From: an uncultured bacterium
GTDB lineage: Bacteria > AUK180
NCBI GenBank assembly: GCA_937863565.1
Contig: CALMGJ010000028.1
Span: 40,802-104,801, forward strand
Direction of reading: 5' to 3'
Length of the DNA: 64,000 nucleotides
Part shown: one piece after another, positions 4,847 to 20,309 of the stretch
How the letters are laid out: every line of letters starts with the position of its first letter
Numbering within the stretch: the first letter of the stretch is position 1
The notes under the pieces: generated by a model
Database searches by the model: none
Told to the model about the DNA's origin: nothing
The model's input: the letters and a program-made list of their open reading frames with translations, nothing else
Made by a program: the position numbers and the translations under genes

Positions 4847-5398
4847 TTACCTTTTGTAGTAAACATCGAAAACGGTTCTTTTTTCGCCCTTGAAATGTTT
4901 ATATTCGATGCTTGAAGCCTTTGCCGAGGTCGAAGCAAGGATCCCTTCCACAAAACCGGCAAAGCGCTCGAAGAAAACATGATTCTCATCCACATTGTCA
5001 AGCTGGAACTGCAGATAATCCTTCCCTGTTTCCGTATGTTTAAGCGTTCCTTCGTCGAAATACTGGCTGAAGATCATCGATGCCCTTTTTAAAGCGTACT
5101 CTGGGGTTGCGATCTTCAAAAATATCCTGTATATTCCCTTCATATTGTTCATTGCTCCGTATTTCGCAGCGTCGCGCAGTATCCGCCTGTTCTTTTCTCC
5201 GTACTTGCGCTGGATGATCTCATTTATTTCGATGAACAGTTCGATAGGATACCAGTTCCCCGGAAAAATATCTCCGTCCGGAAGATGCTTTTTCGATCCT
5301 TCGCCCAGTTCATTGAAGATCTCCGACCATTTCTCCTTGCCGAAATTATCCTCGATGTACTCCTGGCAGTTTTTTATCGATACACCCTTGATGTTCAT
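4847..5398 (-). CDS. uncharacterised 183-aa protein, tandem paralog A (N-terminus H-NOX-like; unverified)
   Basis: Closely similar to adjacent 5417-5968 product; N-term IKGVSIKNCQEYIEDNFGKEKWSEI resembles H-NOX helix A (G..K..Q....FG.E.W..I) but no YxSxR seen. Confidence 0.6.
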   Translation of the reverse strand: MNIKGVSIKNCQEYIEDNFGKEKWSEIFNELGEGSKKHLPDGDIFPGNWYPIELFIEINEIIQRKYGEKNRRILRDAAKYGAMNNMKGIYRIFLKIATPEYALKRASMIFSQYFDEGTLKHTETGKDYLQFQLDNVDENHVFFERFAGFVEGILASTSAKASSIEYKHFKGEKRTVFDVYYKR

Positions 5399-5416: not shown

Positions 5417-5968
5417 TTATTTCGAATATCGCACATCGAAAACAGCTCTTCTGTCGTGCTGCAAATAATCGTATTTTACATCGCAGGATCTTGCAGAAGT
5501 AGATGCGATGACGCCTTCCATATATCCCGCAACGCGCTCGAATATCATCGGCAATTCCGGCACATTTTCGAGATGAAGAACGATGTTCGAGCCGTCGCTT
5601 TTAATGTGTTTCATGTGTCCGAAATCGTAGAATTGACTGAACATCACGGCCGCTTTTTTCACGACGTAATCTACGGTGGCCACTTTCATGAAGATCCTGT
5701 AGACCGTCTTGAGATTGTTCATCGCGCCGTATTTGGCGGCATCGCGAATGATGCGGCCATTGCCTGAACCGTACTTTTTCAGCATTACTTCGTTCACGTC
5801 AACGAATACCCGGACCGGATACCAGTTGCTCGGGAAAACCACTCCGTCCGGCAGATGCTCTTTCGATGATTGCGGCAGGTCCTTTATGATCTCGCCCCAT
5901 TTCTCCTTGCCGTACTTGCTCTCAATGTAGTCCTGACAGTTTTTGATCGATACGCCCTTAACCTGCAT
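5417..5968 (-). CDS. uncharacterised 183-aa protein, tandem paralog B
   Basis: MQVKGVSIKNCQDYIESKYGKEKWGEI...; shares AAKYGAMNN and FERVAGY blocks with paralog A. Confidence 0.6.
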   Translation of the reverse strand: MQVKGVSIKNCQDYIESKYGKEKWGEIIKDLPQSSKEHLPDGVVFPSNWYPVRVFVDVNEVMLKKYGSGNGRIIRDAAKYGAMNNLKTVYRIFMKVATVDYVVKKAAVMFSQFYDFGHMKHIKSDGSNIVLHLENVPELPMIFERVAGYMEGVIASTSARSCDVKYDYLQHDRRAVFDVRYSK

Positions 5969-5979
5969 ACATTCTCCTA

Positions 5980-6537
5980 TTAGTCTTTATCGATGCATCC
6001 GCGGCAGCGCGCTTCGTAGATATCGCCCGCGCCGACGAGGATCTGCTCGTCGCTTTTCACGATCCTTTTCGTTTTCGTGGCGGGATTCCCGCATTTCACA
6101 CAGATCGCCTGCGTCTTGCTCACCTGGTCAGCAACGGCCATCAGTTCGGGTATGGGTCCGAACGGTTCTCCCCTGTAATCCTGGTCCAGGCCCGCAACGA
6201 TCACCCGGATATTCCTTTTCGCAAGCTCTTTGACCGTTTCGATGATCCCCTTATCGAAGAACTGGGCTTCGTCTATGCCTACGACCTCGGTGCCGGGTTC
6301 AACGTATTTCATTATCTCGCCCGAATTCGCAATATTTATGGCTTTCATCTTCTGGTACGAATGGGATACCACATAGGCCTCATCATACCTTTTGTCGATC
6401 TCCGGTTTGAAGATCACAACTTTCTTCTTCGCGATCTCCGCCCTTCTAAGCCTTCTTATGAGCTCTTCGGATTTTCCGGAGAACATGCAGCCCGCGATGA
6501 CTTCTATCCATCCCATTTCCTTAGGAATGAAATTCAT
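5980..6537 (-). CDS. tdk: thymidine kinase
   Basis: P-loop CMFSGKSEEL, VIGIDEAQFF, C-terminal zinc ribbon CVKCG...CRGC. Confidence 0.92.
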   Translation of the reverse strand: MNFIPKEMGWIEVIAGCMFSGKSEELIRRLRRAEIAKKKVVIFKPEIDKRYDEAYVVSHSYQKMKAINIANSGEIMKYVEPGTEVVGIDEAQFFDKGIIETVKELAKRNIRVIVAGLDQDYRGEPFGPIPELMAVADQVSKTQAICVKCGNPATKTKRIVKSDEQILVGAGDIYEARCRGCIDKD

Positions 6538-7904
6538 ATCTTCTCCTCTTCTATATTGTAAGACTTTATCTTGTTTATCAGGGTCGCCCTCGATATGCCG
6601 AGCGCCTGCGCGGCCTTCGTATGGTTGTTATTGTATTTTTTCAAATTCGCGATCACCGCCTGCCTCTCTATCTCGGACAGCGGCACATCTGCGCTTATCC
6701 CTTTTCCGTTACCGTTCCCCCTCCTTGGCTTGGCGATGCCCGCGATATAATCGGGAAGCATCCCGGGTTCTATGGCGCCGCCGTTATTGAAGACCACGAT
6801 ATGCTCGATGAGGTTCTTGAGTTCCCTGATATTCCCCGGCCACGCATATTCATTCATAAGTTTCACCGTCTCTTTGGAGAAAGTGAAGAGCGGTTTCTGG
6901 TACTTGCGGGAATAGTCGATCATGAAGAAATTGGCAAGAGGATATATGTCCGCAGGCCTGTCCCTCAATGCGGGAATGTCTATCTGCACCACCTTGATCC
7001 TGTAATAAAAATCCTCCCGGAACTTCCCTTCCTCGATGAGTTTTATAAGATCTTTGTTCGTCGCGAAAACGATGCGCGTATCGATCTTTTTAACTTCGGT
7101 GCTCCCGACAGGCGTTATCTCCTTCGACTCCAAGAACCTCAGAAGCTTCACCTGGGTAAAAAGGGAGAGCTCGCCTATCTCGTCCAGAAAGAGCGTGCCG
7201 CCGGCGGCCAGCTCGAATTTGCCCTTTTTAGACGATACGGCGCCCGTAAAAGCGCCTTTCTCGTGACCGAACAGTTCCGATTCCAGAAGCGTCTCGGGGA
7301 GCGCCGAGCAGTTTATCGGGATAAGGGGTCCGTCGCGCCGCTGCGAATTGTAATGAATGGTCCGGGCTATCACCTCTTTGCCCGTGCCCGATTCCCCGGT
7401 AAGAAGCACATTGGCGTCCGTCGGCGCGATCTGCTTTATCTTGCTTATGATCGTTTCCATTTCGGAAGAGGCGAAAATGATATTCTCGAAATTGTACCTG
7501 TCGAGAAGTTTCTCCTTGAGGTTTTTTACCTCCTTCTGAAGTCCGAGCTTCTCATAGGCCTTCTCTACGAAGATCTCCAGTTCCTCTAATTTGAACGGCT
7601 TCATCAGGTACTGGTAGGCCCCGCTTTTAATGGCCTCGATGGCCACATCTATCGACGACACCCCGGTGATGACTATGATCTCCCCGTTCTTCCCCGAACC
7701 TTTCAGTATCTTGATAAGTTCCATACCGCTTTTATCCCTCAGATTGAGATCGGTCACGACCACGTCGAAATCGTTCTTCTTGAGAAGTTCCAGCGCGTCC
7801 TCGACGGAATCCGCTCCCTCCACAAAGTCCTTCTTGAACCTGAAGTAATCGATGACGGACTGCCTTATCCCGGCATTATCCTCTACGATCAGAAGTTTTC
7901 TCAT
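6534..7904 (-). CDS. sigma-54-dependent response regulator (NtrC family: REC + AAA+ + Fis-type HTH)
   Basis: LLIVEDN...VVVTDLNL receiver; GESGTGKE Walker A; ESELFGHEKGAFTGA GAFTGA motif; C-terminal HTH AAQALGISRATLINK. Track start 7913 is TTG; ATG at 7904 preferred. Confidence 0.9.
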   Translation of the reverse strand: MRKLLIVEDNAGIRQSVIDYFRFKKDFVEGADSVEDALELLKKNDFDVVVTDLNLRDKSGMELIKILKGSGKNGEIIVITGVSSIDVAIEAIKSGAYQYLMKPFKLEELEIFVEKAYEKLGLQKEVKNLKEKLLDRYNFENIIFASSEMETIISKIKQIAPTDANVLLTGESGTGKEVIARTIHYNSQRRDGPLIPINCSALPETLLESELFGHEKGAFTGAVSSKKGKFELAAGGTLFLDEIGELSLFTQVKLLRFLESKEITPVGSTEVKKIDTRIVFATNKDLIKLIEEGKFREDFYYRIKVVQIDIPALRDRPADIYPLANFFMIDYSRKYQKPLFTFSKETVKLMNEYAWPGNIRELKNLIEHIVVFNNGGAIEPGMLPDYIAGIAKPRRGNGNGKGISADVPLSEIERQAVIANLKKYNNNHTKAAQALGISRATLINKIKSYNIEEEKI

Positions 7905-8565
7905 AAACCTCAAGGTCCTCCGGAAAATCGAATTTGAATACCGTTTTCATATCGTTCGAAATAAAATCTATATTTCCTTTCAGATGCTCCGCGAAGCGCT
8001 TGGAGATGGCAAGCCCCATACCGCTCCCCTGCTCCTTCGTCGTGAACATCGGCTCGAATACGCGATCCCTCAGGCCCTCCTCTATCTTCGGCCCGGCATT
8101 CTCAACGCTGAACATGATGCTCTCGCCTGTCTTTACCGTGGAGATGAGTATCTCGGAACCCTCATTGCAGGCCTCTATGGCGTTTTTTACAAGGTTCATT
8201 ATCACGGTCTGAACCTTGAAACCGTCCTGGTTCACCGCGCCTATCTGAAGATCGAAAGCGAGTTTCACTCTCGCGCCTTTCTCGTTTATATAGCCCTGAA
8301 GGTCGTCCACGATCTCCTTGATCATCAGGTGCAGATCGAACCTCTTCACATCGTTCTCCGTTTTCTGGAAAAGGTTAACATTGCGCGCCATCTCATAGAG
8401 CTTGTCGGCCTGGACGAGAAGTTTTGAAAGCAGGCGTTTTTCTATCTCGTTCTTCTCGGGGCTCTTATCATAGGCCTTTTTCAAAAATTGGAGATTGAAG
8501 ATGATCGGCTGCGCCGCGTTCTTGATCTCGTGGATGAGGTATTTCAGAGTATCTTTTTCGTCCAT
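7876..8565 (-). CDS. histidine kinase lacking any sensor/TM domain (DHp + HATPase_c only)
   Basis: H-box LIHEIKNAAQP near N-terminus; G-boxes EQGSGMGLAISK; 229 aa; overlaps the regulator start. Confidence 0.8.
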   Translation of the reverse strand: MDEKDTLKYLIHEIKNAAQPIIFNLQFLKKAYDKSPEKNEIEKRLLSKLLVQADKLYEMARNVNLFQKTENDVKRFDLHLMIKEIVDDLQGYINEKGARVKLAFDLQIGAVNQDGFKVQTVIMNLVKNAIEACNEGSEILISTVKTGESIMFSVENAGPKIEEGLRDRVFEPMFTTKEQGSGMGLAISKRFAEHLKGNIDFISNDMKTVFKFDFPEDLEVYEKTSDRRG

Positions 8566-8925
8566 ACTGCGTATTATAGCAAAAAAATAGAAAATGTAAA
8601 AATATTTTACACTCCGATAAGGTGAAATATCTCACATTTATTTTAATATTGGACATTAATGGAAATCCTTAAAAATAGGGATTTTATCCGTGAAAACCGC
8701 CTATCCGTGGCCTTTTTGCTTTATTCTGTTCGTATCATCTGCATTTTCATTATTCACTGCGCTTCGCATAACTCTCAACTTATTTAGACAGTTCACTATT
8801 CACTTCGTTTCGGCCGACTTTCAACTGTCAACTCTTTCTCTATCTTCTCTTTTATCGTTCATTATTCATTATTCTTAGATTGTGACGTTATGTAAAATAT
8901 AAAGACCAGGTACCTTCACATTTAC

Positions 8926-9456
8926 TTATTTAGGTTTTATCGACGTATATTTTCTAAATTCAGGATCGCCATTCTTATAATTTGTATTTTCATAATATGG
9001 AACTATTTCTTTAAATGGTGATTTAAATTTCTGATAATATCTCTTACCTTTAAATTTACATACAATAATTGGTTTCGAATCTTCACTATCACAGTCTCTT
9101 ATATATTCAATCCACTCAAATGGAACTATACCAACAGGAATATTTCCACCTTTTTTGTCGAGAATAAATTGAACTCCATATTCTTGAATAATCGTGTAGA
9201 GTTCTGCGCCCTGTTTATAGTAGGTATTGTTTGTTTCATCTTTTCGTTCAGCATTATACTTTTTGACATCTGCAAGAATTATTTTTTTATACAATACAAT
9301 CTCTCGAATTTGCTTAGTTATTTTCATCTCATGTTCATATTTTTCTCTTGCTGATATTTGCTGTGTTAACGCGTATAGATGATACCCTACGAACACACCG
9401 ACAATTATCGCGATTAATGCTATTAGATTATCCCAAAAATAAAACGTAAAGTCCAT
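8926..9456 (-). CDS. hypothetical single-pass membrane protein (AT-rich island)
   Basis: N-terminal TM NLIALIAIIVGVFVGYHLYAL; N/K/Y-rich composition; ATG verified at 9454-9456. Confidence 0.55.
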   Translation of the reverse strand: MDFTFYFWDNLIALIAIIVGVFVGYHLYALTQQISAREKYEHEMKITKQIREIVLYKKIILADVKKYNAERKDETNNTYYKQGAELYTIIQEYGVQFILDKKGGNIPVGIVPFEWIEYIRDCDSEDSKPIIVCKFKGKRYYQKFKSPFKEIVPYYENTNYKNGDPEFRKYTSIKPK

Positions 9457-9543
9457 TTAATCCCACTCTTCATAATAGATTGTGTTACTTTCATCTATCG
9501 CGCCCAAAAACATATTTTTCCAGACATGTATTTTCACGCGGAA

Positions 9544-10707
9544 CTATCTATTCCCTTTTGCCTGATTATGCGTTTTGCACAGCATTTGGCAATTAGCGGC
9601 ATCCGTAGCGCCTCCTTTGCTCCATGCTGTAACATGATCCGCGTCCATTTCATTTAATTTCCAGACCTTGCCTTTATTGGCATCGTGGCCCAGTGCGCAT
9701 AGCGGGCAATTTGAATGGCCGTTCCTTTCGGCTTCTTCCGTTTGCTTTGCATAAACGGTCTTCTTTGTGGCATCGTCAAATACCCTTACATTGAGTAGTT
9801 TTGTCTCTTTGGACCCTCCGAGAATATATTCAAATATCCCCTTCCGGTTTTTGATATACGGATCCCCGTAGAGTTCTTTCACCTGATCGGATACGGCTTT
9901 GGGATCATATGAATTCTTATGATATTTTTCATAAAGCCTGCCCCACTCCAATCCTTTCATCTCGCTTTCCACATCAATGAATACGCCCGATACCCAATCT
10001 ATGACGCTATTGAAATAAACTTTCAGTTCTTTAATATTATCGTCATAACGGTGCTTGCTCATATATTCACCGATATTGCCTTTGCTTACCCAATCCAGCG
10101 CGCATTCCATAAATTGCTGGCGGTTCACGCTTCCCGATATATAGGCGCTCCATTTCTGGATATTGGAATTTTGACTATTGCTGAACTCTTCCTTCCCCAA
10201 AGTAACAAATGGGCCCGAATAAACGGCATTGAGCAGTTCCTGGTCATTAAGCGGAACGCCCGCGATATTGATAGTTCTAAACCATTCTTTTATTTCGCTT
10301 TCCGTGCCTTCGCATTCATAGATGAGAAGATTGGTATTCAAGATCTTATCCTGTTTGTCCTCTGCTATCCCGCTGAAATACTGCTCCATCCCGTTCTCGT
10401 CTTTGACGGCGAACTTATTGGTAACGAAACGGCCGAAACTCGTGATGCGCTGTTGGCCGTCCAATACTTCGAGCTTATCCTCGCTTACTTTATTGAAATA
10501 GATCAATCCGAGAGGATAACCCTTGAGCAGCGATTCGATAACGGCAACATCCTTTTTGCCGTCCGCATAAATATAATTACGCTGATACTCCGGCTGTATC
10601 GTCAATCGCCCCGATAGACCGAAAAGACCCTTGCCTTCCAGTTCATTATAAACAAAACCATCGCAGATGTCTTTTACGGTGATGTCGATCTTTAAATTTG
10701 TTCTCAT
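9544..10707 (-). CDS. DUF262 (ParB-like, DGQQR) domain fused to C-terminal HNH endonuclease; GmrSD-like nuclease
   Basis: IQPEYQRNY and [12 protein letters not shown] in N-domain; C-terminal CPLC...[32 protein letters not shown] is a canonical HNH; ATG 2 nt downstream of methyltransferase stop. Confidence 0.8.
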
Positions 10708-10709
10708 TT

Positions 10710-11765
10710 TTATTTCCTGTGTTTAATTAGAATTCGAAAATATGGGCAGGCACCGTTTTTTAATCGCAAATCCTTTTCATCATTTCCATGCCTGAATTTT
10801 ATAATCTCAAACTGCTCCGGTGAATATTTGTCCAGAAAACTGATCGGAACTCCCATCACTCCGTCATAATCGCTCGGTATGGCATCCGTAAACGGGACCT
10901 CTATGGCATCATAATTGTCATATTTTTGATATTCCTTTCCCTTGATCTCTTTATGTTTGCTGTATTTTATATTGTCTTCCATTGTCATCAGGGGCAATGG
11001 TTGGTGACGCCTTCCATGATCAAGATTGGTGAACCAACGAACGCCTTTAATCCGCAAGAATTTATTCCCGTCTTTGTCAATTCTCCACCCGGCGGCAGTT
11101 ATTGGATAATCATCCGGCACTTGAAATTCTCTATCTCCGCTTCTAATACTTGGGCCGAGCCACATTCTATCACTTTTTATCAAAGGAAATACTTCTTTGT
11201 ATGTAATTGAATTCATATTCCCAATAATTAAAAATTGCTTTTCCCATTCCGTAATCCATGCCAGAAATTCCCTGAACAATGAAAAAGGCGGATTGGTAAT
11301 AATGATATCTGCCTCATCGCGTAATTTCGTAACTTCTTTGCTTCGAAAGTCGCCGTCCCCTTCCATATAATGCCATTCCAGGTCATCCACATCTATTTTG
11401 CCGTTCCCTGTTCTATCGTGATTTAATATAAATATCTTTCCGTTCTTGGCGGTTTTATTCTTGTCGAATTTAGGGTCGCTTGTTTCAAATAAAGTGGGTT
11501 GATAATTGGATTTACATTTTTTACTTTCCGCAGCATAACTCGTGCTTATGAGTTTTTTCAGCCCGAACCTGTGGAAGTTCTGAGCAAAGTACTTGGTAAA
11601 ATTGCTCCATTCGGGATCATCGCAGGGTAATAAAAGCGTCTTACCGCGGAATACATTGTGATCATACTCTATATACGCATTGATCTCTTTTTCTATATCA
11701 TTGTATTGAGTATAGAACTCATCGTTTTTCGCATTTTTAGCATTTGATAAATTGCTATTCGCCAT
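10710..11765 (-). CDS. N6-adenine DNA methyltransferase, EcoRI-methylase-like family
   Basis: KNDEFYTQ near N-terminus and IITNPPFS (motif IV); family assignment from memory of EcoRI methylase. ATG verified at 11763-11765; track start is an upstream extension. Confidence 0.65.
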
Positions 11766-11923
11766 AATATTATTATAATACTTTCCCCCGTATATTTCAA
11801 ATCTTTTCTTAATGAAAAAGAGGGACGTTGGTTGAAAAAGGTGAAATTTCCATATTGTTTCATGCAATCTTGATTTCAGCGCGGATTTCGTTATAATATT
11901 ACGGAACAGGGAAATGTTTTAAA

Positions 11924-12667
11924 ATGAAACTCCGAATAACGGCAACGGTCCTGATGTGCTTATTGCTTGCCGCTTCCTGCGGTAAGCAGAGCATCTCGCA
12001 AAAGGGGGAAAATACTATGGAAGAGAGCGGTCAATTCGCACAGAGAAGGAGTGAGATGGTGCAGTACCAGATCCGGGCGCGCGACATTACAAATAAAAAG
12101 GTCATCGAAGCGATGCTCAAAGTGGAGAGGCACAGATTCGTTCCGGAAGATGTTAAGGAGTACTCCTACGAAGACTATCCCCTTCCTATCGGGGAGGGTC
12201 AGACGATCTCCCAGCCGTATATCGTAGCCTTCATGACGGAGATGATCGCGCCCGGACCCGAAGACAAGGTGCTCGAGATCGGAACGGGATCCGGATACCA
12301 GGCGGCTATACTTGCGGAGATCGTGGCGGAAGTATTCACTATCGAGATCAATGAAGCGCTTTACAGAAGAACAAAAGCCCTCCTTTCCGGAATGGGATAT
12401 AAGAATATCCATACGATCTGCGGCGACGGATTTGCGGGTTATCCTGAAGCCGCGCCATTCGACAAGATAATAGTCACCGCCGCATCGAGCGAAGTACCGC
12501 CGAAACTCTTCGAGCAACTCCGCGAAGGCGGAAAGATGATAATACCGGTAGGCGAAGGGTATCAGGAACTCCTTCTCATCACTAAATTAAATGGGCAGAT
12601 GATAAGGGAGAATGTGCTGCCGGTGAGATTCGTTCCATTGATCGATAAAAACGGAAAACGATATTAA
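11924..12667 (+). CDS. pcm: protein-L-isoaspartate O-methyltransferase with lipoprotein signal
   Basis: ISQPYIVA, VLEIGTGSGYQAA SAM motif; N-terminal LLLAASCG lipobox. Confidence 0.9.
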   Translation: MKLRITATVLMCLLLAASCGKQSISQKGENTMEESGQFAQRRSEMVQYQIRARDITNKKVIEAMLKVERHRFVPEDVKEYSYEDYPLPIGEGQTISQPYIVAFMTEMIAPGPEDKVLEIGTGSGYQAAILAEIVAEVFTIEINEALYRRTKALLSGMGYKNIHTICGDGFAGYPEAAPFDKIIVTAASSEVPPKLFEQLREGGKMIIPVGEGYQELLLITKLNGQMIRENVLPVRFVPLIDKNGKRY

Positions 12668-12817: not shown

Positions 12818-13153
12818 ATGAGAGCATACAATGAACTCGACCTTAATGTAAAAATGATCAAGGACCGGATCGAGATCAGCGTGGAAGTCCCCGGACTCAA
12901 CCGCGACGATATCGATATCATGGTCTTCGGTAATCTTTTCCGTATAGTGGCTAAATATCCCGAGTTCACGGATAACGACCGCTTCCTTCTGAAGGAGATA
13001 AGAAGGAACGGAACGGTGGAGCGCGAGTTCAGGCTCGATCAGCCCGTAGATACCGGCAAGATAAGCGCCGAATTAAAAGGCGACGGCATTCTCAGAATCA
13101 CTCTTCCGCTTACCAGGGAAGAAAAGAAAATAATAAACATCAGGGAGGTGTGA
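12818..13153 (+). CDS. Hsp20/alpha-crystallin small heat-shock protein
   Basis: alpha-crystallin domain, GILRITLP motif. Confidence 0.85.
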   Translation: MRAYNELDLNVKMIKDRIEISVEVPGLNRDDIDIMVFGNLFRIVAKYPEFTDNDRFLLKEIRRNGTVEREFRLDQPVDTGKISAELKGDGILRITLPLTREEKKIINIREV

Positions 13154-13154
13154 T

Positions 13155-13604
13155 ATGAAGATCAGAAAATTTTACGATGACGACGGAGTGTTCAAGAAGC
13201 TCGCCAGGCTTGAGAATTTCTTCAGTGATGTCTTCGAGGACGGGGATTTCAAATCTTCACCTCTGGTTCAGACGAACTGGGCGCCGAAGATCGACATCAA
13301 GGAGAAAAAGGATTCCTACGAAGTGACGGCGGAATTCCCGGGAATGAACAAGGAAGACATAGAAATCTCGCTCGAGGACAATATCCTTGTTTTCAAGGGA
13401 GAGAAGAAATTCGAGGAGAAAAAGGAGGAGGATAACTACCTCCACATAGAAAGGTCCTACGGTAATTTCTACCGCTCTTTCAAACTCCCCGAAGCGATCG
13501 ATACGGAAAAAGTCGATGCTTCATTTAAAAACGGCGTTCTGCATCTCGTTCTTAAGAAAAAGCCCGAAAGCAAGGGCAAGAAGATCGAGATCAAAGGCGA
13601 GTAA
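13155..13604 (+). CDS. Hsp20/alpha-crystallin small heat-shock protein
   Basis: SYGNFYRSFKLP...GVLHLVLKK alpha-crystallin motifs. Confidence 0.88.
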   Translation: MKIRKFYDDDGVFKKLARLENFFSDVFEDGDFKSSPLVQTNWAPKIDIKEKKDSYEVTAEFPGMNKEDIEISLEDNILVFKGEKKFEEKKEEDNYLHIERSYGNFYRSFKLPEAIDTEKVDASFKNGVLHLVLKKKPESKGKKIEIKGE

Positions 13605-13614
13605 CGGCAATCTT

Positions 13615-13653
13615 CGGAGGGCGGATTAAAAACGCCCTCCGCTCTTTCTATTT
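13615..13653 (+). terminator. hairpin (9-bp stem CGGAGGGCG / CGCCCTCCG, 9-nt loop) followed by T-rich tract; probable intrinsic terminator/attenuator between hsp20 and dnaK
   Basis: Perfect inverted repeat 13615-13623 / 13633-13641, then ctctttctattt. Confidence 0.5.
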
Positions 13654-13664
13654 AGGAGAATGAT

Positions 13665-15605
13665 ATGGCACAGAAAAAAGTGATCGGTATCGACCTCGGT
13701 ACCACGAACTCATGCGTAGCGGTAATGGAGAACGGACAGCCCAAAGTACTTTACAATACTGAAGGATCCAGAACAACGCCGTCCGTCGTCGCTTTCAAGG
13801 ATAACGACGAGATCATAGTCGGCGCGGCCGCGAAGAGACAGGCAATAACCAACCCTTTGAATACGGTATTCTCGGTAAAAAGGCTCATAGGCCGTTCTTA
13901 TGAGGAAATAAACGAAGAACTGAAACTGATCTCGTACAAGGTATCCAAGGGCAAATCCCAGAATGTCCTCCTCGAGATCGGCAATAAGAAATATACGCCT
14001 CAGGAGATATCCTCGATGGTACTCAAAGAAATGAAGAAGATCGCCGAGGATTATCTCGGAGAAAAAGTCGAGGACGCGGTCATAACAGTGCCGGCATATT
14101 TCAACGATTCCCAAAGGCAGGCGACGAAGGACGCAGGCAAGATCGCCGGGCTTAATGTGCTTCGTATTATAAATGAGCCCACTGCAGCGGCGCTTGCTTT
14201 CGGCGCCGACAAGAAGAAGGATGTTAAAATAGCCGTATACGACCTCGGCGGCGGCACCTTCGATATCTCCATTCTTGAGATCAATGAAGGCGTTTTCGAA
14301 GTGAAATCCACCAACGGCGATACCCATCTCGGCGGCGACAACTTCGACCTTGCGATTTTGAACTGGATAGCCGATTCGTTCAAGAAAGAGAAAGGCATCG
14401 ACCTTACTAAGGACCCGATACCGCTACAGAGATTGAGGGATGCGGCGGAGAAGGCCAAGATCGAACTTTCTTCGAAGCTCGAAACGGAGATAAATCTGCC
14501 TTTCGTTACAGCGGATGCCAACGGCCCGCAGCACCTGCAGATGACGCTTTCCAGGGCAAAATTCGAGAATCTCGTAACGGATCTCATCGAGAAATCCATA
14601 GAACCGTGCAAGAAAGCGCTCAAGGATGCGAAGACCTCCGCCAAAGACATTGATGAAGTACTTCTCGTCGGCGGAATGACCAGAGTGCCGATGGTGCAGA
14701 AGAAAGTGGAGGAATTCTTCGGTAAAAAACCGAACAAAGGCATCAACCCCGACGAAGCGGTTGCGGTCGGCGCGGCGATCCAGGGTTCGATCCTTGCCGG
14801 GGACAAGACGTCGGGCGACATTCTGCTCGTTGATGTTACTCCCCTGACCCTCGGCATTGAAACGCTGGGCGGAGTATCAACTCCCCTCATAACGCGCAAT
14901 ACGCCTATTCCTACAAAGAAATCCGAAATCTTCACAACGGCGGACAATAATCAGCCGGCGGTCGATATCAGAGTGCTTCAGGGCGAGAGACCCATGTCTG
15001 CGGATAATAAGCTCATCGGGCAATTCCAGCTTGCAGGCATACCCCCTGCGCCGAGAGGCATACCGCAGATCGAAGTAACTTTCGATATCGACGCAAACGG
15101 CATTCTCCATGTCACAGCAAAAGATAAGGCCACCGGAAAGGAACAGACGATCAAGATACAAGTCTCAAGCGGTCTTTCAGATGCCGAGATAGACAAAATG
15201 GTCAATGAAGCCAAGGAACACGAGGAAGAGGACAAGAAAAGGCGCGAGCTCATCGAAGCACGCAATAAGGCCGAATCGCTTATATACCAGACGGAGAACC
15301 TTCTCAAGGAGATGAAAGAGAACAATAAGCTTGATGCGAAGGAAGGCCAGGAATTGAGCGAAAAGATCGAGAAATTGAAAGAGGTGGCTAAAGGCGAAAG
15401 CAAAGAGGCCATAGAAAAATCTATAGACGATCTTTCGAAATTCTTCGCGGGCATATATCAGAAATACGGTCAGACAGCTGGACAACCCGGAGGCAATGCG
15501 GGTCCCGGTCCTGAAGCCGGCACTCAGCCTGAGAGCGGCGCGGGCCCTGAAGGTCCAGAAGCCAAGAAAGACGACGTCATAGACGCAGATTTCGACGAGA
15601 AATAG
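13665..15605 (+). CDS. dnaK: molecular chaperone DnaK (Hsp70)
   Basis: [33 protein letters not shown] signatures; 646 aa. Confidence 0.97.
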
Positions 15606-15616
15606 TTCACATATAC

Positions 15617-15652
15617 GGGAGGCCTTCGCGCGGAGGCCTCCCTGTTTTGTTT
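15617..15652 (+). terminator. hairpin GGGAGGCC / GGCCTCCC followed by TGTTTTGTTT; intrinsic terminator after dnaK
   Basis: Inverted repeat 15617-15624 / 15635-15642, T-rich tail. Confidence 0.55.
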
Positions 15653-15657
15653 AAGCG

Positions 15658-16716
15658 ATGGAAATAAAAGATTATTATAAAGTTCTCAATGTCCCCGAAA
15701 GCGCCACGCTCGATGAGATCAAAAGGTCATTTCGCGAACTTGCAAAAAAATACCATCCTGATATTAACAAGGCACCCGATGCCGAAGCAAAATTCAAGGA
15801 AGTAAACGAAGCCTATCAGATCCTCTCCGATCCCGACAAGAAGATAAAATACGACGAATACAAAAAGTACGGCGGTAATCCTTTTGCGGGCGGAGGAGGA
15901 GGCGGGGGCAGCGCGCAGGATATTTTTGCCGATCTTTTCGGAGGAGGGTTCAGATCGGGAGGAGTTGAGGATATTTCAGACCTTTTCTCGGGTTTCTTCG
16001 GAGGCGGAGAGAGGAGGAATTCATACGAGGACCTTGCCATCCATATCCAGATCACGCTCACTTTCGAAGAATCCTATTCCGGTACGGAAAAATATATATC
16101 CTTCAACCGGGCCTCTCCTTGCGCATTCTGCGGGGGAAGCGGCGCGACGGAAAAAACAGCCTGCCCTCACTGCAAAGGGAGAGGCAGCATCGCCAGCAAC
16201 TCCGGTTTTTTCTCAATGCAGAGAACTTGCCCTTACTGCAAAGGCACGGGAAGCATTGCCAAGACCAAATGCAATGTTTGCCAGGGTACCGGAAAGAAGC
16301 ATATCACTGAAAAGAAAGCGGTTAAAATACCTTCCGGAGCAAGGACGGGAGACAAACTTACGATAAAAGGTCTGGGAAATTCCGAGAACGGCATGGCCGG
16401 GCCTTTGGTGATCCATATTGCCGTTATGAGCTCTCCCGTTTATTCCCGCGAAGGCAATAATCTCGTGCTGAACCTTAAAATAGATCTGAAGCAGGCGCTT
16501 GCAGGAGATAAAGTGAAGATAAGGCATTTCGGAAAGGAACTGACCGTCACGATCCCCCCGGGGACCAATAACGGGGATGTGCTTTCATTGCGGGGCATGG
16601 GAATGAAACGCGGGCGCGATGCGGGCAACCTTCACCTTAAGATCTCTCTCACGCTTCCGAAGAAACTCACAAAGAAACAGAAGGATAAACTCGACGAATT
16701 CCTGAAGACCCTGTAA
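15658..16716 (+). CDS. dnaJ: DnaJ-family co-chaperone (J domain, G/F region, 4x CxxCxGxG zinc finger)
   Basis: DYYKVL...YHPD J domain; glycine-rich linker; CAFCGGSG, CPHCKGRG, CPYCKGTG, CNVCQGTG. Confidence 0.85.
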   Translation: MEIKDYYKVLNVPESATLDEIKRSFRELAKKYHPDINKAPDAEAKFKEVNEAYQILSDPDKKIKYDEYKKYGGNPFAGGGGGGGSAQDIFADLFGGGFRSGGVEDISDLFSGFFGGGERRNSYEDLAIHIQITLTFEESYSGTEKYISFNRASPCAFCGGSGATEKTACPHCKGRGSIASNSGFFSMQRTCPYCKGTGSIAKTKCNVCQGTGKKHITEKKAVKIPSGARTGDKLTIKGLGNSENGMAGPLVIHIAVMSSPVYSREGNNLVLNLKIDLKQALAGDKVKIRHFGKELTVTIPPGTNNGDVLSLRGMGMKRGRDAGNLHLKISLTLPKKLTKKQKDKLDEFLKTL

Positions 16717-18621: not shown

Positions 18622-19606
18622 TCTCCGTCTCCTTTGAAAGGCGGCTTACCAGTTCTGCGCGGTCCTTCCAGCCAAGTTTATTAAAGATCTCCGCCGCTTT
18701 AGCCAGATTGTCTTTTCCGGTCATCTTGCCCGTCATCCGGAAAAGTTTTTCCGCATATTTTTCCGCTTTCTTTATTTTATCGGATTCGATGATTGTCTGA
18801 ATTAAGTTAATAAAACTCTCTTCCTCGCCGCTGCGGTCGTTTATCTCGTGCCTGATATGAACCGCTTTCTCAAGAAAAGAAACAGCATCGGACGAGTTCC
18901 CGGAAAGGGCAAGCAATCGCCCGAGATTATTGAGATTCACAGCCTGTCCGTACTTGTCCCCTATCCTGATTCTGATTTCAAGCGATCTTTTAAAACAACC
19001 GATAGCCCCTTTATAATCCTTTTTTAAATAACACAGATAACCGACATTATTACAGTTGCTTGCTTCACCCTTCAAATCCCTATATTTCACACATATCGTA
19101 AGGGAATCGCTAAAACACTCATGTGCAGATGAATAATCCCTGAGAATATTGTAAATAACGCCCTTATTATTCAGTATTAAAGCCGCTGTTTCCGGATCAT
19201 GACTTTTCTTCGCGGCGGCATATGCTTCCGAATAACATTGAAGAGCCTTTTGATGAGCACCCAGTTTTTTATAAGCGACACCCAAAGAATTCAAGCAATT
19301 CACAGCACTCTTTTTCAATCCCGCTTTCTTCATAAGTGATAGGGCTGCTTCTTCTATTCTCAGCATTTCAGAATCTTTACCAAGAACCCCTTTTATATGA
19401 CCTATCTCCATCATACATACGGACTCGTTTATAGGATCATCGATCCTGCGCGATATCCTCAACGCTTTTTTCAAGTCTTCAAGAGCCCGGAAAGGTCTTC
19501 CCGTCAGTTTATACAAGTTGGCCCGCATTCTGAGAGCACGGCAGTATGTTTTAAGGTCTTTTATCTTATATTTATTTTTCAACGGGACCAGCGGACGACA
19601 AGGCAT
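18611..19606 (-). CDS. TPR-repeat protein
   Basis: TPR units throughout. Confidence 0.8.
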   Translation of the reverse strand: MPCRPLVPLKNKYKIKDLKTYCRALRMRANLYKLTGRPFRALEDLKKALRISRRIDDPINESVCMMEIGHIKGVLGKDSEMLRIEEAALSLMKKAGLKKSAVNCLNSLGVAYKKLGAHQKALQCYSEAYAAAKKSHDPETAALILNNKGVIYNILRDYSSAHECFSDSLTICVKYRDLKGEASNCNNVGYLCYLKKDYKGAIGCFKRSLEIRIRIGDKYGQAVNLNNLGRLLALSGNSSDAVSFLEKAVHIRHEINDRSGEEESFINLIQTIIESDKIKKAEKYAEKLFRMTGKMTGKDNLAKAAEIFNKLGWKDRAELVSRLSKETENGK

Positions 19607-19646
19607 AGATCAGCCGAAACCGATATATATTTGAGAGAAAAGCCCG

Positions 19647-20309
19647 TTAGATTTTCACGCATGTAAAAACGGCCGTATTATCCCATTGTTTCCTTATTTC
19701 TGCAATTTTAAATCCTGCCTCCAAGAATAACCGGATCTGCGTATCATTTGACAATGGCGTATCATAATGATATAAACCTGTAGAAATATTATTCGCTTTT
19801 CTTATTCTCTCACTTTCTTTTTGAAAATAAACTTCTTTATCTTTAGTCCGAACGGTATAATCGCCTTCAATATATACGGCATTCGGTTTTAGGGAATTAT
19901 ATATCTTCTTATAGAGCGATAATTTAGAGTCCGGACTGAAATGATGAAGCGAGTATGTTGAAATTGCCCAGTCATATTTCGAGAAGCCGTATTCAACATC
20001 GAAGTATGAGGCACACATTATATGGAGTTGATCTTTCTTTTCCTTGAATTTTTCCAATAGTTTTTCCAGCATTTTATCTGAAATGTCGATGCAGGTAATT
20101 TGAGCATTTGGGGCCGAAAGAAAAATATTTGAAATTTCCAGGCCCGTGCCGCAGCCGATATCTAATATTTGAGCGTTTGGCGGTCCTTTGGGGAAGTACT
20201 CGGCGATAGCATCATAAAATTCCCGAAGATTTAATTCTTCCAGCATATGCAGATCATATGTCTGAGCCCGAGAATTAAAAAAATCCTTCATCTCTTCCGG
20301 TTTTTCCAT
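19647..20309 (-). CDS. class I SAM-dependent methyltransferase
   Basis: ILDIGCGTGLE motif I; ATG at 20307-20309 with GGAGG RBS preferred over track start 20399. Confidence 0.75.
   Translation of the reverse strand: MEKPEEMKDFFNSRAQTYDLHMLEELNLREFYDAIAEYFPKGPPNAQILDIGCGTGLEISNIFLSAPNAQITCIDISDKMLEKLLEKFKEKKDQLHIMCASYFDVEYGFSKYDWAISTYSLHHFSPDSKLSLYKKIYNSLKPNAVYIEGDYTVRTKDKEVYFQKESERIRKANNISTGLYHYDTPLSNDTQIRLFLEAGFKIAEIRKQWDNTAVFTCVKI

Follow-up and report, generated by a model that had tools for sequence, protein, structure and literature searches.

An EcoRI-family methylase and a DUF262-HNH nuclease form a probable BanLI-type restriction-modification module in an AT-rich island of an uncultured bacterium

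A stretch of 64,000 nucleotides (nt) from an uncultured bacterium of the lineage AUK180 (contig CALMGJ010000028.1, positions 40,802 to 104,801; hereafter referred to as the window) contains an AT-rich island of three minus-strand open reading frames (ORFs), two of which encode an EcoRI-family DNA methyltransferase (methylase) and a nuclease combining a DUF262 domain with an HNH domain. Sequence comparison places this gene pair in the BanLI family, which is already represented in REBASE, PADLOC and one experimental paper. The pair probably constitutes a horizontally acquired BanLI-type Type II restriction-modification (R-M) module, in which methylation protects DNA from restriction. This reading is based on the homology of both proteins, their domains, the conservation of their catalytic residues, the maintenance of a methylase-then-nuclease operon across phyla and the foreign composition of the island.

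Results

The gene pair and its catalogued relative

The mechanical methylase ORF spans positions 10710-11867; translation most probably begins with the ATG at 11765 (351 amino acids (aa), beginning MANSNL), because exactly this 351-aa protein is a called gene in a public collection. The product matched the Pfam profile PF13651 (EcoRI_methylase; 1.3e-130) and the PADLOC MTase_II model PDLC03297 (7e-103), and its translation contains the motifs NDEFYTQY and ITNPPFS, the NPPF of the latter being the catalytic motif. The methylase stop codon (10712-10710) and the nuclease ATG (10707) are separated by 2 nt. The nuclease matched the Pfam families GmrSD_N/DUF262 (PF03235; 5.6e-22) and HNH (PF01844; 8.6e-7) and the PADLOC REase_II model PDLC03418 (1.4e-87), over model positions 8-371 of 372; its translation contains IQPEYQRNY, LDGQQRITS and CPLC...DADH. 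An earlier reading of this DNA (hereafter referred to as the original prediction) had quoted motifs from both proteins, the 2-nt gap and the domain labels EcoRI methylase and DUF262 plus HNH; the motifs were all found in the translations, the coordinates confirm the gap and the Pfam matches agree with the labels. Its description of the module as non-canonical in composition did not hold, as the nuclease is already classed by PADLOC among the Type II restriction endonucleases.

BanLI is the R-M system of Bifidobacterium animalis subsp. lactis described by O'Connell Motherway et al. in 2014 (PMC3990576). M.BanLI (41.7 kDa), which those authors aligned to M.EcoRI, generates single-strand RTC(m6A)GG, where m6A is N6-methyladenine, when expressed in Escherichia coli; R.BanLI is a protein of 43.5 kDa (PMC3990576). 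The cloned pair decreased the plating of P1vir about 10-fold (efficiency of plating (EOP) about 0.1), and pre-methylation increased transformation 1.8-fold; restriction of a plasmid carrying 13 sites was weak (PMC3990576). BanLI was labeled an "incomplete Type IIS" system, with the second methylase lost (PMC3990576). The REBASE putative Type II endonuclease Ban8145ORF124P (RTCAGG) corresponds to a gene whose annotation reads "DUF262 domain-containing protein" (PMC13091528). A cluster look-up of diverged representatives had shown no connection to Bifidobacterium.

The BanLI locus was recovered from five human-gut contigs with a 21-mer from the end of banLI.M, taken from the published primer table (PMC3990576). 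Contig L189 carries, in this order, an integrase gene, the first codons of which match the RM.BanLIF primer, M.BanLI (370 aa, ending EEAQGK) and, abutting it, a 372-aa protein (R.BanLI) with the motifs RPRYQREFVY, LDGQQRT and CPLC...ADH...N...C. R.BanLI matched PDLC03418 with 905 bits over positions 1-372 of 372, and the PADLOC model was therefore built on this protein. Identity to the BanLI proteins is 40% for the window nuclease (against R.BanLI; residues 9-387 versus 8-372; E = 2e-98) and 41% for the window methylase (against M.BanLI; E = 7e-85).

The pairing of nuclease and methylase is conserved

Pairing was assessed in 85 genome/metagenome loci, by tblastn, and in a separate set of 80 viral/prophage loci. 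An EcoRI-family methylase gene was present upstream, on the same strand, in all genome/metagenome loci with enough upstream DNA except one (L043); six of the 85 loci gave no methylase match, and in five of these no more than about 250 nt separate the nuclease from a contig end. Of the 74 viral/prophage loci with sufficient room, 70 had the methylase upstream and one further locus had it downstream. Overall, the pairing is kept in about 95% of roughly 150 loci, which come from many phyla and from plasmids and phages and reach down to 40% identity, with a spacing of 2-12 nt or an overlap down to the same level. The original prediction had offered, as one of two readings, a Type II-like system with the DUF262-HNH protein as its restriction component; this near-universal operonic pairing and the homology to the REBASE-named BanLI support it. 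It had also held that homologs never found with a methylase would speak against the module, and the relatives nearly always have one.

A word-sharing search yielded more than 8000 relatives of the nuclease; the top 120 (its own protein excepted) are 81-87% identical and come from different phyla. At least 575 relatives were found in one-genome-per-species contigs, from Chloroflexota, Patescibacteria, Bacteroidota, Proteobacteria, Firmicutes, Spirochaetes and other phyla, and a profile scan identified the nuclease in 321 viral and prophage contigs. The family comprises 462 clusters at 50% identity (E<=1e-30). Near-full-length nucleases are present in 44 plasmid records and near-full-length methylases in 65. 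Plasmids carry the pair in Moraxella, Enterococcus, Macrococcoides, Mammaliicoccus, Ligilactobacillus, Aeromonas, Variovorax, Dietzia and several actinobacteria, down to 42% identity, and Flavobacterium phage laban6-1 carries it too. Orphan methylases exist, whereas solitary nucleases are rare, an asymmetry that is expected if the nuclease is toxic without its methylase.

Some loci have tandem full-length methylase genes before a single nuclease gene, three in one case (L066:2499-7158) and two in another (L104:716-4553). The three paralogs of L066 group together in the methylase tree, which suggests that they arose by duplication in situ. Such tandem methylases may relate to asymmetric sites requiring strand-specific methylases.

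This distribution would also suit a selfish addiction cassette, maintained foremost by post-segregational killing, in which cells that lose the methylase are killed by residual nuclease. The pair is frequent on plasmids of 8.4-10.5 kb with little else (Moraxella, Apilactobacillus, Pediococcus and an uncultured-bacterium plasmid), phages and prophage ends carry it, its proteins are tightly conserved despite cross-phylum spread and saturated synonymous divergence, and the phage protection conferred by BanLI is only weak. Nevertheless, addiction is compatible with defence, classical Type II systems doing both, and many copies lie in chromosomal defence islands, beside GmrSD, Type IIG, Shedu or toxin genes. 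In three such islands (L001:3526-10151, L002 and L105), the Cloacimonas pair adjoins an integrase and a full GmrSD (DUF262 plus DUF1524) or a Type IIG enzyme, and in Dietzia the pair adjoins a Shedu nuclease. An integrase gene is adjacent in only 22 of 171 loci. In view of the many tiny plasmids with the pair, an addiction role beside defence is plausible, but as the principal role we consider it doubtful.

Domain structure and conserved residues of the nuclease

The AlphaFold model of the nuclease, built from an alignment of 65 relatives with 33-65% identity, was confident (predicted local distance difference test (pLDDT) 93.3, predicted template-modeling score (pTM) 0.80). The nearest solved structures for the DUF262 part were sulfiredoxin/ParB-like domains (about 5.5), and its solved relatives include BrxU and SspE, both regulated by nucleoside triphosphates (NTPs), DndI-type proteins and CTP-switch ParB proteins. 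For the C-terminus, the nearest structures were EcoKMcrA, the HNH of phage GVE2 and the Cas9 HNH. No matching Type II enzyme was found among the structural neighbours of the model. In sequence searches of the Protein Data Bank (PDB), the nuclease as a single sequence gave only spurious matches and the methylase none; with a family profile, the matches were confined to HNH domains and a weak one to the DUF262 domain of BrxU. The second-best PADLOC match of the nuclease was NsnA of the Menshen system (5.8e-29, residues 33-229), and the weaker partial matches (NsnA, PD-T4-2_A and HEC-05/06) have the DUF262 part alone in common. Pfam searches of the nuclease identified neither PF07510 (DUF1524) nor a helicase or translocase domain; the C-terminus is a PF01844 HNH with CxxC...CxxH zinc ligands.

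Residue conservation was scored in relatives of 33-65% identity. The three nucleotide-pocket motifs of DUF262 domains, as defined in PMC12065111, were all recognized: QRxxxY (Q42, R43, Y47), DGQQR (83-87) and FxxxN (F143, N147) are invariant or at least 90% conserved, and within DGQQR, residues D83, G84 and R87 are invariant and Q85 and Q86 at least 90% conserved. The HNH residues C334, C337, D357, H358, N372 and C377 are conserved as highly as the DUF262 motifs. The HNH and DGQQR residues, at which the R-M reading might have failed, are thus conserved in relatives. The middle helical domain is the most variable of the three, with a mean identity of 35%, versus 43-47% for the other two.

DUF262 joined to a His-Me finger is the architecture of GmrSD, BrxU and SspE, which are the closest solved structures, and some homologs carry the automatic name "McrA" at the Joint Genome Institute (JGI). 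Both facts would suit a Type IV (modification-dependent), GmrSD-like nuclease travelling with an unrelated orphan methylase. However, the C-terminus is a PF01844 HNH rather than DUF1524, the methylase partner has been kept at close spacing or overlapping at great divergence, the two proteins co-diverge, BanLI restriction is relieved rather than provoked by cognate methylation, and a nuclease dependent on its neighbour's own mark would be suicidal. A Type IV system is thus highly improbable. The second reading of the original prediction, a methylase coupled to a modification-sensing nuclease, is likewise unsupported, since the methylase is retained to 40% identity and BanLI is methylation-protected in the literature.

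Evolution of the pair

Comparison of the window with the other loci showed saturation at synonymous sites (pS about 0.89) and a non-synonymous difference of 0.118 (nuclease) and 0.206 (methylase); gene GC content follows host GC content (r 0.66). A recent sweep was considered as the source of the roughly 80% identity across phyla and was rejected on these two grounds; strong purifying selection therefore accounts for the cross-phylum identity. Of the locus pairs, 98% show better conservation of the nuclease than of the methylase, a comparison biased by the choice of loci according to nuclease similarity. Even with this bias, the slower nuclease is the reverse of the fast evolution usual for Type II endonucleases. 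The methylases form two clades, 54% identical to each other; nuclease identity is 80% between these clades and 81-83% within them (Mantel r 0.23). At greater depth, the two proteins co-diverge (40% versus 43% and 58% versus 57%).

The near indifference of the nuclease to the methylase clade is one of several features that would suit a nucleotide-gated enzyme with Type III-like behaviour. Such an enzyme would act with one-strand methylation and a ParB-like NTP switch, the nuclease closing on DNA, sliding or dimerizing, with communication from site to site; cutting would require two unmethylated sites, or sites in a given orientation, so that hemimethylated daughter duplexes would be spared. In its favour, the single methylase M.BanLI marks one strand of RTCAGG, and one methylase accompanies one nuclease in about 95% of loci, such that the idea of a lost second methylase does not generalize. 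In addition, all three nucleotide-pocket motifs are at least 90% conserved, the structural neighbours are the NTP-regulated BrxU and SspE and the CTP-switch ParB, and a need for two sites or for a given orientation would be consistent with the weak restriction by BanLI of both P1 and a 13-site plasmid. Conversely, NTP use and site requirements are conjectural for members of the family, and the nuclease has no helicase/translocase domain like that of true Type III Res subunits. The window methylase is closer to M.EcoRI (48%; palindromic site, both strands methylated) than to M.BanLI (41%), so one-strand methylation may not apply here, and where a locus has two or three methylases, the arrangement is more reminiscent of a Type IIS solution. 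Overall, we consider Type III-like gating unlikely.

EcoRI methylases and the recognition site

The window methylase is colinear with M.EcoRI (48% identity; E = 5e-102). On the small E. coli plasmid pU90-3, M.EcoRI adjoins a gene annotated as "type-2 restriction enzyme EcoRI", which comes first (R then M). According to the original prediction, the normal partner of an EcoRI-type methylase is an EcoRI-fold endonuclease. The plasmid sample indicated otherwise: three of the sampled methylases adjoined an EcoRI-family endonuclease (R then M), at least eight adjoined a DUF262(-HNH) protein (M then R) and two were orphans. In a neighbour-joining tree (constructed without bootstrapping and indicative only), the EcoRI-partnered methylases formed one small clade inside the radiation of DUF262-HNH-partnered methylases. 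No EcoRI-fold endonuclease was encountered beside the window methylase: the only adjacent nuclease is the GmrSD_N plus HNH protein, and positions 8566-11923 contain no other ORF of suitable size.

M.EcoRI (GAATTC) and M.BanLI (RTCAGG) are 46% identical yet differ in specificity, and the target of the window methylase is therefore not inferable from similarity; assignment of a recognition site on this basis, from the identities of 48% and 41%, was rejected. Palindrome avoidance gave no pointer to the site: GAATTC has an observed/expected (O/E) ratio of 0.74 in 550 kb of host flanks, where it ranks 6 of 64 and lies among palindromes that are generally avoided, and in the window, with a ratio of 1.01, it is not depleted. 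A lead to CATG enzymes (NlaIII/CviAII) was dropped, CviAII being listed as of unknown fold, and not HNH, by Orlowski and Bujnicki (2008), and BanLI proving to be the actual relative.

Composition and surroundings of the island

The island lies between the start of a histidine kinase gene and the start of pcm (Table 1). The window has a mean GC content of 0.474 (standard deviation 0.025 in 3358-bp windows), against which the island stands out. GC content is 0.298 for the small gene, 0.440 for the nuclease and 0.385 for the methylase gene, and GC content at third codon positions is 0.23, 0.51 and 0.41, respectively, versus 0.55-0.69 for neighbouring genes. The ORF list, the Pfam assignments of the flanks and the GC scan all agree with the original description of three AT-rich minus-strand genes between a two-component pair and pcm. 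The contrast of 30-40% against 48-50% GC drawn there by eye stands for the island as a whole, but not for the nuclease gene, which is only mildly AT-shifted. The promoter-like site of Table 1 sits directly upstream of the methylase start codon.

Table 1. Features of the island and its flanks (window coordinates).
Feature	Position	Strand	Basis or remark
AT-rich island with three genes	8566..11923	.	GC 0.379; lowest-GC 3358-bp window of the 64 kb
EcoRI-family N6-adenine DNA methyltransferase, 351 aa, first gene of the pair	10710..11765	-	Pfam, PADLOC, homology
DUF262 (ParB/Srx-like, DGQQR)-helical middle domain-HNH nuclease, 387 aa, putative restriction gene	9544..10707	-	R.BanLI homolog
176-aa protein with one N-terminal hydrophobic helix, most AT-rich gene	8926..9456	-	GC 0.298; outside the R-M module
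Candidate promoter of the gene pair, TTGAAA-17-TATAAT, 11/12	11772..11800	-	Consensus scan; pattern match only
Histidine kinase, HATPase_c	7876-8565		Pfam
Sigma-54 response regulator	6534-7913		Pfam
pcm, PCMT	11924-12667		Pfam

Searches at the locus found no tRNA and no Rfam match, no tyrosine-integrase homolog was detected within the 64-kb window, and no convincing repeats flank the island, in line with the original failure to identify an integrase or a flanking direct repeat. The best direct repeat is 13 nt long (12/13 matching; AAGGTGAAAT[A/T]TC), at 8619-8631 and 11838-11850. Its copies fall in the two intergenic regions bracketing all three AT-rich genes; the chance expectation for such matches is about 0.1-0.3 (a rough estimate), and the repeat alone is no evidence of an insertion scar.

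The closest relatives of the adjacent histidine kinase among 5.8 billion proteins are at most 32% identical, and the source organism is apparently without sequenced close relatives. As no relative of this kinase exceeds 32% identity, no sister genome was found for an empty-site comparison. The insertion of the island into the host locus is thus deduced from composition only.

The third gene of the island, separated from the nuclease gene by 87 nt, had been proposed as an accessory effector. Its 176-aa product, a single-pass membrane protein, matched no family in Pfam, PADLOC, NCBIfam or PHROG, and has about 140 homologs, with 51-65% identity, across Bacteroidota, the candidate phyla radiation (CPR) and other phyla. 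These homologs occupy neighbourhoods unrelated to R-M, one of them adjoining a serine recombinase, and the family was found at none of the 85 genome/metagenome and none of the 80 viral nuclease loci (165 in all). An effector role was rejected on these two grounds, and because of them the gene is counted as separate cargo of the same AT-rich patch, outside the R-M module. The family itself is a mobile orphan gene family without annotation.

Several other features of the window were recorded. On the far side of pcm, positions 12818-16716 contain two tandem Hsp20 genes followed by dnaK and dnaJ, an ordinary heat-shock cluster. Upstream of a thymidine kinase gene, two tandem paralogous minus-strand ORFs of 183 aa, without a Pfam family, lie at 4847-5398 (MNIKGVSIKNCQEY...) and 5417-5968 (MQVKGVSIKNCQDY...). 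Further low-GC stretches (0.37-0.42) occur at 750-1500 and 18750-20250, the latter covering a TPR-like ORF of 331 aa and a methyltransferase-like ORF of 250 aa (labels read from the translations only). The tetranucleotides ACGT (O/E 0.42, z -6.5) and CTAG (O/E 0.26) are both strongly under-represented in the window; the depletion of ACGT could reflect pressure from another restriction system.

Discussion

Under the R-M interpretation, the methylase would use S-adenosylmethionine (SAM) to mark host DNA at N6 of adenine within a short target sequence, and the nuclease would be transcribed and translated after it, because its gene starts 2 nt later. DNA without the methyl mark would then be attacked by the nuclease. 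The DUF262 domain would bind or hydrolyse a nucleotide and thereby license or regulate cutting, as established for BrxU, GmrSD and SspE; the helical middle domain, of a type that binds DNA in SspE, GmrSD and NsnA, would read the site; and the C-terminal zinc-ribbon HNH (CxxC...DH...N...CxxH-N) would cut. By analogy with BanLI, methylation is presumed to block cleavage at the window locus.

Several observations weigh against this interpretation. According to the structural comparison, the solved relatives of the DUF262 part (BrxU, SspE and DndI-type proteins) are all modification-dependent or modification-sensing, and the assigned polarity of methylation therefore depends on the genetics of one homolog and on gene context. 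Restriction by BanLI is itself weak (EOP about 0.1), and a partial defect of the system was suspected by the authors who described it (PMC3990576). The nuclease hardly tracks the methylase clade, which would not be predicted if both proteins simply read the same site. A few nucleases have no adjacent methylase: that of L043 (L043:37-4446) is preceded by AAA_13 and DUF2130 genes, and three solitary nucleases at prophage ends (L128:4001-5176, L150:4001-5173 and L159) adjoin Bro-N, integrase or KAP-NTPase genes. Finally, no empty site in a relative confirms the insertion.

In the literature, DUF262 nucleases figure as proteins that sense modified DNA, and a 2025 survey lists as an open possibility that they "may target non-modified genomes" (PMC12065111). 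Our literature search found no mechanistic paper on the pairing of a DUF262-HNH protein with an EcoRI-family methylase, and none that analyses how the family is built or works. The BanLI family is a natural test case for DUF262 action on unmodified DNA, and could yield restriction enzymes with new properties. At the window locus, the pair would simply add a copy to an R-M family that is already catalogued, within an insertion of defence type; the residual interest lies in the architecture and mechanism of the family, which also alters the view of what EcoRI-family methylases usually pair with. A tentative and, in our judgement, improbable extension is that the BanLI family, of which the window pair is typical, forms a distinct and very widespread class, in which a GmrSD-type ParB-like NTPase-HNH protein has been turned on unmodified DNA, with nucleotide gating, Type III-like logic and cleavage that needs communication between sites. 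If true, this logic would explain the single methylase, the weak restriction by BanLI and a nuclease that evolves unusually slowly and is indifferent to the methylase clade, and the classical EcoRI pair would be a side-branch on which the methylase family gained a PD-(D/E)XK partner.

Comparison with known systems

The window nuclease resembles GmrSD in its N-terminal DUF262 domain with a DGQQR motif. It differs from the Type IV enzymes GmrSD and BrxU in length (about 390 aa versus about 600 aa), in having a classical zinc-ribbon HNH rather than a DUF1524 C-terminus, and in having a conserved cognate methylase, by which, from the homology to BanLI, it would be blocked rather than activated. 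SspE senses the phosphorothioate (PT) mark of a multi-gene system and has a DUF1524 nuclease, whereas the partner here is a single m6A methylase. The arrangement of DUF262 with a helical DNA-binding part is shared with Menshen NsnA (PMC12065111); this resemblance is confined to the N-terminal half, and the window protein differs in having its nuclease fused in cis and a methylase as its partner. Neither the NsnB ABC-ATPase nor the NsnC effector was found beside the window nuclease, the neighbours of which are the methylase and the small membrane protein. Unlike R-M systems of Type III, this pair has no superfamily 2 (SF2) helicase-type ATPase, and its methylase belongs to the EcoRI family rather than to Type III Mod, according to Pfam and PADLOC. 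The methylase is homologous to M.EcoRI (PF13651), but the nuclease is unrelated to the PD-(D/E)XK enzyme R.EcoRI, and the gene order is M then R. The comparison with BanLI is the closest. Identity is only about 40%, such that a recognition sequence other than RTCAGG is conceivable; directly upstream of BanLI is an integrase gene, which the window locus lacks, and an unrelated gene for a small membrane protein flanks the window copy. Nevertheless, both protein families are shared over their full length, the genes abut in the order M then R, and the two pairs are recognized by the same PADLOC models.

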